Below, piece after piece: positions 19,709 through 20,449 of a stretch of DNA of 64,000 bases; position 1 is the first letter of the stretch; the number at the start of each line of letters is the position of its first letter. The translations under genes and the position numbers were made by a program. This DNA comes from Escherichia phage EI-SP-GF. Location of the stretch: sequence record OR992645.1; one strand, written 5' to 3'. Under the pieces are notes generated by a model, which was not told the DNA's origin, did not search any database, and saw only the letters and a program-made list of their open reading frames with translations.

Positions 19709-19915
19709 TCATTCAAAGAAATGGGTGCGAGGACAAGATCCAGCCTCGCCTTGTTTCACAAGCTCGTAGAGCTCACCTTGGCTTGTCTCATAAAGGCAAA
19801 TACGTTTACCATTGTCCCGATATACATCGACAAGATACGCTGTTTCACCTGCAAACACGACACCACAGGCCAGACATGCTGCCATGAACAAAATTGCCAA
19901 CAGAAAATCTTTCAT
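19709..19915 (-). CDS. small secreted or lipoprotein-like protein (68 aa)
   Basis: N-terminal hydrophobic signal-like segment LLAILFMAACLACGVVFA; immediately downstream of endolysin. Confidence 0.35.
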   Translation of the reverse strand: MKDFLLAILFMAACLACGVVFAGETAYLVDVYRDNGKRICLYETSQGELYELVKQGEAGSCPRTHFFE

Positions 19916-19978
19916 GGTTAAACCCTCCTAAACATTTTATGAGGCAACAATACCACGTCCGTGTGGTTATGTCAATGA

Positions 19979-20449
19979 TCAATCAAGGACAACACCGCCT
20001 GCCTTTTTAAACACCTCGATCAACTTCTCAATCTTCTGTTCATGCTGACCATATCCAGCACCAGGTAACGAAGCCCAGCGGGAACGGCATTTATGGATAG
20101 CCTCGTGGATACGCCCTTCGTCAATGTCGGCGAGAGCCTTGCACTCACGGATCAGTTGCAACGCAATCTTGTCCTGACTGGCAGGGCCAAAATCTGGCAA
20201 TCCTAACTGTTCCATGTAGTGTTTAGCAAACTTCTCCAAAACCTGGTAACGCCCAGCAGCGGAGGAGGTAAGTTTAGCATTTAGCTTAACGTACACACCT
20301 GGATGCTTGCTGTAATCGCTAAACAGCTTGCCACCAACTATGACATCATAGCCCCGATCCTTGGTGGGTTGTCTACCATTATCTGTGCCTTCTGAATATG
20401 CGATCATATCCAAGAAAGCTTTTCGTTGAACATTTTTATCAAGTTTCAT
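19979..20449 (-). CDS. endolysin, lambda R-type lytic transglycosylase
   Basis: Near-collinear similarity to lambda R: QRKAFLDMIAYSEGTDNGRQ...GYDVIVGG...WASLPGAGYGQ. Confidence 0.85.
   Translation of the reverse strand: MKLDKNVQRKAFLDMIAYSEGTDNGRQPTKDRGYDVIVGGKLFSDYSKHPGVYVKLNAKLTSSAAGRYQVLEKFAKHYMEQLGLPDFGPASQDKIALQLIRECKALADIDEGRIHEAIHKCRSRWASLPGAGYGQHEQKIEKLIEVFKKAGGVVLD

Follow-up and report, generated by a model that had tools for sequence, protein, structure and literature searches.

The 64,000-nucleotide (nt) stretch of Escherichia phage EI-SP-GF analyzed here (OR992645.1; called the window, at its full length) very probably belongs to a Vequintavirus genome with an unlinked, T4-style lysis system whose holin gene lies outside the window. 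It encodes a soluble endolysin, a 68-amino acid (aa) protein next to it and, in a separate transcription unit, a spanin pair (Table 1). In the scheme that we propose, the lambda-R-type endolysin would accumulate in the cytoplasm and, as it has no export signal, would have to await the opening of the inner membrane by a holin. A holin encoded outside the window would then trigger and release the enzyme, and the Rz/Rz1-type spanin pair, which would be made together with the packaging proteins, would fuse or disrupt the outer membrane as the last step. The 68-aa protein would be exported through the Sec pathway and cleaved by signal peptidase I, taking no part in hole formation. That the genome carries a holin elsewhere than in the window is almost certain.

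The window follows the Vequintavirus (rV5-like) myophages of E. coli gene for gene and is 97–100% identical to them at the nucleotide level (rV5, Murica, LL12, Gotham and the BASEL Bas48-57 group). Over the 2 kb around the endolysin gene, more than 100 Vequintavirus genomes share 97–99.7% identity with the window (A6-1, MaxTheCat, Murica and rV5 among them), and the first 2.5 kb of the window are 100% identical to phage S127 BCL3. Its orientation is antiparallel to the rV5 reference and, by collinearity, it corresponds to approximately 27–92 kb of the 138-kb rV5 genome. The minus strand bears nucleotide-metabolism and replication genes and the plus strand the late packaging, head and tail genes; between the two units lie a divergent promoter region near 25.3 kb and then a cluster of transfer RNA (tRNA) genes. 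The order shared by the group is ligase, endolysin (ORF89), 68-aa protein (ORF90) and HNH endonuclease, with the spanins (ORF67/66) upstream of terL. An earlier note on this DNA had placed a lambda-R-type endolysin and a spanin pair about 10 kb apart, and both assignments held: the endolysin through its match to lambda lysozyme and to phrog_90, the pair through its Rz-like PHROG matches, and the distance at 10,184 nt from the start of the endolysin gene to that of the i-spanin gene, which lie on opposite strands in divergent transcription units with the tRNA cluster in between. Dispersal is here a question of gene layout and not of statistics.

The dispersed lysis genes are real and are an ordinary, documented feature of rV5-like phages, whose lysis layout is already in the literature (PMC3606486, PMC6658697, PMC7471380, PMC7344957). 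Scattered lysis genes together with an unidentified holin have been published for rV5 in 2013, LL12 in 2019 and Gotham in 2020. The lysin and the putative holin gp129 of rV5 were described as lying apart, "as in phage T4" (PMC3606486), the Gotham announcement stated that the holin was not identified (PMC7471380) and the paper on the Vequintavirinae phage KPP-1 made the same statement (PMC9862379). Similarly, the spanins of CB7, rV5 and PVP-SE1 adjoin terL and these phages have no lysis cassette (PMC7344957). No new biological principle is at stake. T4 is a familiar case of unlinked lysis genes, and for this group the gap has been pointed out many times. What novelty is left lies outside the window, in the rV5-like holin, and in the role of the secreted 68-aa protein.

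Concerning the endolysin, residues 4–154 align to residues 3–153 of the 1AM7/3D3D chain (lambda lysozyme) with an E-value of 3.4e-56, and the protein also matches the PHROG endolysin family phrog_90 (3e-56). The motif "SEGTDNGRQ" is kept (query "aySEGTdngrq", lambda "awSEGTdngrq"), and we take the Glu of "SEGT" to be the catalytic Glu of lambda-R-type enzymes. The hydropathy scan found no hydrophobic or uncharged run of at least 16 residues in this protein, and it has no signal peptide or signal-arrest-release domain. Since the open reading frame (ORF) already uses the earliest start codon available downstream of the preceding stop, an N-terminal extension is impossible. A soluble endolysin without an export signal needs a holin, as is established for lambda. 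On the evidence of its sequence, the enzyme is a predicted cytoplasmic lambda-R-type endolysin, and its dependence on a holin would follow from lysis biology. More than 100 Vequintavirus records carry the endolysin annotation.

With an ATP-dependent DNA ligase as its upstream neighbor, the endolysin gene lies inside the replication and nucleotide-metabolism unit. It is carried by a variable island rich in homing endonucleases, to which the HNH gene downstream of the 68-aa gene belongs. Serratia phage Kashira and Salmonella phage SSBI34, of other Vequintavirinae genera, have no endolysin at the corresponding position, and other genera of the subfamily use different endolysin types, as reported in the CB7 paper (PMC7344957). 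The ORF is also bracketed by an imperfect direct repeat of 27/28 nt, of the form ACATAACCACAC-N3-4-GT-N-GT-..TTGTTG, whose exact 12-mer occurs at only two sites in the window and likewise at only two in the whole rV5 genome. Its local alignment score of 29 compares with 13.8 ± 2.2 for shuffled sequences, and none of 2000 shuffles reached 29. Possible readings of the repeat are a promoter or regulatory element that was duplicated, or the scar of the insertion of an endolysin module. From the HNH island, the flanking repeat and the absence of this endolysin or the use of other types in related genera, the dispersal looks partly historical, as would fit an endolysin module swapped in independently of the conserved spanins. 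A reading of the repeats as RNA elements was rejected, as Rfam gave no match and the folding energies were no better than those of shuffled sequences. Additionally, a 20-nt inverted repeat (19972–19991 and 20652–20671, 18 of 20 positions complementary) encloses the endolysin gene and its upstream spacer, with one arm over the endolysin stop codon and the other within the 3' end of the ligase gene.

The two spanin genes are recognized by several features. The i-spanin matches phrog_4297 at 1e-48 and has its hydrophobic segment at residues 14–37, while the lipobox of the o-spanin reads MRVTALVVLCLLLCGC|ATS in the sequence (the bar marks the cut, here and below). The genes overlap by 4 nt (31028–31031), and the o-spanin and terL genes share one base, the last of the former and the first of the start codon of the latter. 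From the PHROG matches, the transmembrane domain (TMD), the lipobox and the overlapping genes, we assign the pair as a two-component spanin of the Rz/Rz1 type; the formation of a complex and the disruption of the outer membrane are predicted. As the strong terminator upstream ends 18 nt before the i-spanin start, there is no room for a promoter between them. For the spanin and terL genes to be transcribed, the tRNA/ORF68 transcript would seemingly have to continue past the terminator, by read-through or antitermination.

The 68-aa protein is encoded 63 nt downstream of the endolysin gene and contains a single hydrophobic stretch, at the N-terminal residues 4–23 (mean hydropathy 2.6–2.7). We aligned it with eight homologues from a large protein database and with those of Kashira and SSBI34. 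A profile search of 1.84 billion representatives returned only 10 matches, indicating a tiny, unannotated family, and five further remote homologues from it were used. The comparison covered 16 homologues. Throughout this family the first 22–30 residues are hydrophobic and essentially free to vary in sequence and length. From residue 23 onward there is a conserved domain of about 45 residues with 14 invariant columns, including Cys40 and Cys61, and the five remote homologues follow the same plan. The compared members begin with Met and at least one basic residue near the N-terminus (most with MK), after which comes the hydrophobic core. At the aligned boundary the residues at -3 and -1 are small in all compared homologues, as is typical of sites cut by signal peptidase I (VFA|G, FAG|K, VRS|G, AWS|G, AWA|G, AHA|S, AHA|G, AQA|S, ARA|T, AEA|A, SYA|G, AEA|S). 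The AlphaFold2 model (mean predicted local distance difference test score 81.6) has a helix at residues 2–17 followed by four beta strands. Foldseek searches of the model against PDB found nothing below E = 0.05 and, with BFVD included, only generic small beta-barrels and uncharacterised phage proteins. The protein belongs to phrog_4641, a PHROG without functional annotation, and falls into no curated holin family of Pfam, PHROGs or NCBIfam. A lipoprotein reading was discarded, as Cys14 and Cys17 of the core are not conserved in the homologues.

A holin must retain its TMD in the membrane, and it normally has a charged tail. In the 68-aa protein, the sole hydrophobic segment is non-conserved and ends in a (-3,-1) site, and the C-terminus is a four-stranded beta domain with two invariant Cys; as neither a retained TMD nor a charged tail is predicted, we do not regard the protein as a holin. 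Nor is there a conserved linkage to an endolysin, the adjacency being confined to Vequintavirus. The Kashira and SSBI34 homologues keep the ligase-exonuclease block and have as neighbors a membrane protein, a MazG-like enzyme and proteins without assigned function, with no endolysin. We classify the product as a predicted Sec-exported periplasmic mini-protein; its mature form is probably a periplasmic beta-protein of about 46 residues with a disulfide bond. This agrees with the earlier note, which had read the protein as resembling a signal peptide more than a holin, and the variable N-terminus and conserved cleavage site bear that reading out. Directly before the gene lies a sigma-70-like promoter (TTGACA-17-TATTGT with an upstream TG, 19975–19947), and the rV5 record annotates the promoter "P90" at the same position. 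The gene is probably expressed from this promoter, which points to expression that does not depend on the endolysin and may be early. Its role, as a guess, would be envelope-modifying or of the exclusion type.

For a holin inside the window, we scanned the hydropathy of about 100 gene-like ORFs of at least 25 aa on the transcribed strand, with a second, permissive pass for uncharged runs of at least 16 residues. The scan yielded the 68-aa protein, the two spanins, the tape measure protein, larger enzymes and a doubtful 82-aa ORF between nrdD and nrdG; the only strongly hydrophobic small proteins among these are the 68-aa protein, the two spanins and the 82-aa ORF. We found no credible holin among these approximately 100 ORFs of the 64-kb window. 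A 54-aa ORF with two segments (42722–42886) was rejected as spurious, since its frame has an in-frame stop in rV5. The earlier statement that no holin is evident stands for the window and not necessarily for the genome, as a candidate with two TMDs lies outside; a multi-TM holin elsewhere in the genome, named in the earlier note as the finding that would overturn that statement, is partly at hand in this 78-aa protein 2.4 kb past the left edge, itself a prediction.

It seems most improbable that the 68-aa protein is itself a holin or an RI-like antiholin, that is, a single-TMD, type-II protein releasing or timing the endolysin. The gene does stand directly downstream of the endolysin gene, its 20-residue, very hydrophobic stretch is long for the core of a signal peptide and several records annotate it as a "putative membrane protein"; against this, conservation in the family is lowest in the hydrophobic segment, which is shorter and rich in Ser and Gly in the homologues, the cleavage site keeps its aligned position in them, the conserved beta domain has no charged cytoplasmic tail, the adjacency to the endolysin is lost in other genera, and the model has no fold similarity to any PDB entry and hence none to T4 RI or Spackle. 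That the 82-aa ORF is the holin can hardly be believed either. It is 60–99% conserved, with the first 64 or so residues kept across Vequintavirus, is intact in many relatives and annotated in only some of them (as "hypothetical"), and combines a hydrophobic core of 2.1 with an Arg/His-rich C-terminus. Against it, its frame shares 104 nt with the start of nrdG, rV5, A6-1 and LL12 have another sequence in place of its C-terminal third, its second hydrophobic stretch has 11 residues only, it matches no family, and the curated Murica annotation omits it and draws a terminator there instead. A lead from this ORF to the podovirus ACG-C91 was also dropped: the 53%-identical stretch lies there in an unannotated gap among replication genes, without a link to lysis.

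A holin gene outside the window is thus the reading that we prefer, and there the candidates are an ORF129-type protein and the ORF31/ORF29 pair, which we regard as roughly equally plausible. An ORF129-type holin, class II-like and with a gene about 22 kb downstream of that of the endolysin within one transcription unit, is a tentative possibility. The left end of the window is identical to S127 BCL3, and in that phage the homologue of ORF129 lies 2443–2679 nt to the left of window position 1. The type has 78 aa, two hydrophobic segments (2.6 and 2.5) and the charged, Lys/Arg/Glu-rich C-terminus KNIRKEKKESRDG, fitting class II holins in size, TMDs and tail, and the homologue belongs to phrog_10061, which has no functional annotation. 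ORF129 was proposed as the rV5 holin by Kropinski et al. (2013) after TMHMM and Phobius scans, likewise a prediction (PMC3606486). Our hydropathy scan of the whole rV5 genome found two strong hydrophobic segments in no other small protein; ORF129 occurs in 115 Vequintavirus records and in the phage identical to the left end, and varies by 54–100%, as holins often do. The case is lessened by the annotators of the Center for Phage Technology (Murica, LL12) and of BASEL, who leave it hypothetical, and it is nowhere annotated as a holin. Moreover, it matches no holin family, has no Pfam or NCBIfam hit, is not linked to lysis genes in other phages, and stands among replication-unit genes and not among late ones. 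The ORF31/ORF29 pair of membrane proteins, which would be expressed late from the tail-fibre module, is possible as the holin (perhaps with a partner or antiholin), if somewhat doubtful. Collinearity places the homologues of this pair at distances of about 4.5 and 6 kb from the right end of the window, outside it. ORF31 of rV5 (104 aa) has an N-terminal TMD and a coiled coil, and ORF29 (88 aa, phrog_1322) has two weakly hydrophobic segments and a charged C-terminus. ORF31 occurs in 223 records covering all Vequintavirinae genera; ORF29 occurs in 368 records from Vequintavirinae, Stephanstirmvirinae and the Aeromonas Plateaulakevirus, including phi92/phAPEC8-like phages, and the two are syntenic, with at most one gene between them, in Seunavirus, Certrevirus and rV5. 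Furthermore, ORF31 is not reported among the virion proteins by mass spectrometry, the genes T4 t and T7 17.5 also follow tail-fibre genes, the spanins are likewise conserved across the subfamily and located in the late unit (PMC7344957), and the authors of the BME3 study described an 81-aa topology-II holin-like protein, the record naming the ORF29 homologue "membrane protein-holin" (PMC12210895). On the other side, neither protein matches a holin family and the pair is never beside an endolysin or spanin gene in the contexts inspected, in which the ORF29-type gene is always among tail-fibre and baseplate genes. Rather improbable, finally, is a broader version: that the ORF29 type (phrog_1322), perhaps with ORF31, represents an unrecognised holin family of rV5-like, phi92/phAPEC8-like and some Aeromonas myophages, with ORF129 being something else and the 68-aa protein a new periplasmic modulator (e.g., of lysis timing or superinfection).

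Several points weigh against a T4-style system with its holin beyond the window as we have set it out. The whole analysis is computational and yields predictions only; the scan used Kyte-Doolittle hydropathy, not a trained topology predictor, with its length and strand limits (at least 25 aa, transcribed strand only); and the signal-peptide cleavage of the 68-aa protein is read from a pattern of residues only. The curated holin families of Pfam, PHROGs and NCBIfam gave no match to any candidate, whether in the window or beyond it, and the positions of the outside candidates come from collinear relatives and not from the source genome itself. ORF129 is limited to one genus, with homologues only in Vequintavirus-sized contigs, and its C-terminus is no more basic than the loop that joins its TMDs, so that an N-in/C-in topology is not assured. 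As for ORF29, its segments are weak (mean approximately 1.0), and its constant place in a structural module fits a role in assembly (or receptor masking) equally well.

Searching for broader homologues of ORF129 and ORF31 with a word-indexed protein search gave close relatives only. In rV5, the ORF31 and ORF29 types belong to a cluster of small membrane proteins inside the tail-fibre/baseplate module (20937–22662), and in Seunavirus and Certrevirus a multi-TM protein of 152–157 aa (phrog_7451) lies between the two types. The cluster could be a holin system or have an assembly or exclusion function. "Hol 46" of Aeromonas phage PZL-Ah152, an experimentally studied holin, was considered as a relative of ORF29 and set aside, being a T7-like gene in the gp17.5 position with no sign of kinship. 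Apart from these proteins, rV5 encodes at 1980–2480, in a region outside the window and directly upstream of rIIA, a second peptidoglycan hydrolase, which is SleB-like (Pfam Hydrolase_2) and has a typical signal peptide; as an exported enzyme, it would not need a large-hole holin.

The T4 lysis genes e, t, pseT.3/pseT.2, rI and rIII are unlinked. The present phage resembles T4 in having a soluble endolysin away from holin and spanins, and rV5 has rIIA/rIIB homologues. It differs from T4 in that the endolysin is of the lambda R type and not of the T4 E type and in that the spanins adjoin terL; family scans of the membrane-like candidates detected no homologue of the T holin, RI or RIII. In the S-R-Rz/Rz1 system of lambda, Rz1 is embedded inside Rz. 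The likeness to lambda consists of an endolysin closely homologous to R and a two-component spanin of the Rz/Rz1 type, whereas here the endolysin gene is not preceded by an S-like holin gene, the genes form no cassette, and the spanin genes overlap by those 4 nt only. T4 Spackle (Sp) and RI are, like the 68-aa protein, small periplasmic proteins with an N-terminal signal in the infected cell, which we treat as a lead only. Both T4 proteins are helical, whereas the predicted fold of the 68-aa protein is beta-stranded, and no sequence similarity to them was found. The analogy with T4 has been drawn by Kropinski et al. as well (PMC3606486).

Biocontrol of E. coli and therapy cocktails make wide use of Vequintavirus phages. 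As the protein that times lysis has never been identified in this genus, the timing of the burst can be neither engineered nor predicted. Our analysis removes the 68-aa neighbor of the endolysin as a tempting but false holin candidate; the window misses the plausible ones, and the search is narrowed to three small genes.

Table 1. Positions in the window of the lysis genes and of the neighboring features discussed in the text.
Feature	Position	Strand	Remarks
82-aa ORF (doubtful)	3169-3417	-	Between nrdD and nrdG; one hydrophobic segment, basic (Arg/His-rich) tail
HNH homing-endonuclease gene	19235-19699	-	Directly downstream of the 68-aa gene; phrog_5200, 2e-72; annotations in relatives
68-aa precursor, rV5 ORF90 homologue	19709-19915	-	Predicted signal peptide ~1-22, mature part ~46 aa
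Downstream repeat copy	19945-19972	-	Overlaps the promoter before the 68-aa gene
Soluble lambda-R-type endolysin, rV5 ORF89 homologue	19979-20449	-	Lytic-transglycosylase fold, 156 aa
Upstream repeat copy	20487-20513	-	Within the 124-nt gap between ligase and endolysin
ATP-dependent DNA ligase	20574-21857	-	Upstream neighbor of the endolysin
Intrinsic terminator	30578-30614	+	GC-rich hairpin and T-run; ends 18 nt before the i-spanin start; annotated in Murica
i-spanin, Rz-like	30633-31031	+	N-terminal TMD, then charged, probably coiled-coil periplasmic domain; rV5 ORF67/66 pair; "i-spanin" in Murica
o-spanin, Rz1-like lipoprotein	31028-31315	+	Lipobox LLCGC|A; phrog_1267, 4e-22; "o-spanin" in Murica

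The differences between the window and its Vequintavirus relatives are at the strain level only: an insertion that carries an HNH gene divides nrdD, and terL is interrupted once, with no endonuclease gene in the interruption. Specifically, the two parts of nrdD (5506–6369 and 3449–4657, minus strand) are separated by an insertion with a 177-aa HNH endonuclease ORF at 4751–5284, while the gene is continuous (2124 nt) in rV5 and S127 BCL3. The insertion is probably a mobile intron with a homing endonuclease. The terL gene (31315–31743 and 32093–33181, plus strand) is interrupted by about 350 nt without an endonuclease ORF; rV5 has three terL exons and an HNH gene, and the intron content is thus strain-dependent. 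In the tRNA cluster, ARAGORN called a 99-nt tRNA-like gene at 29869–29967 with a 4-base anticodon (atcc) and no amino acid, which is annotated in Murica as "tRNA-OTHER Asp|Gly". A tRNA-Tyr lies between tRNA-Arg and tRNA-Ser in Murica and rV5 and was not called in the window. Finally, about 19 records labeled "Campylobacter phage" (MG0656xx, host C. jejuni) show 97–100% identity to rV5-like phages of E. coli in all the regions that were compared, and their C. jejuni host labels look doubtful.

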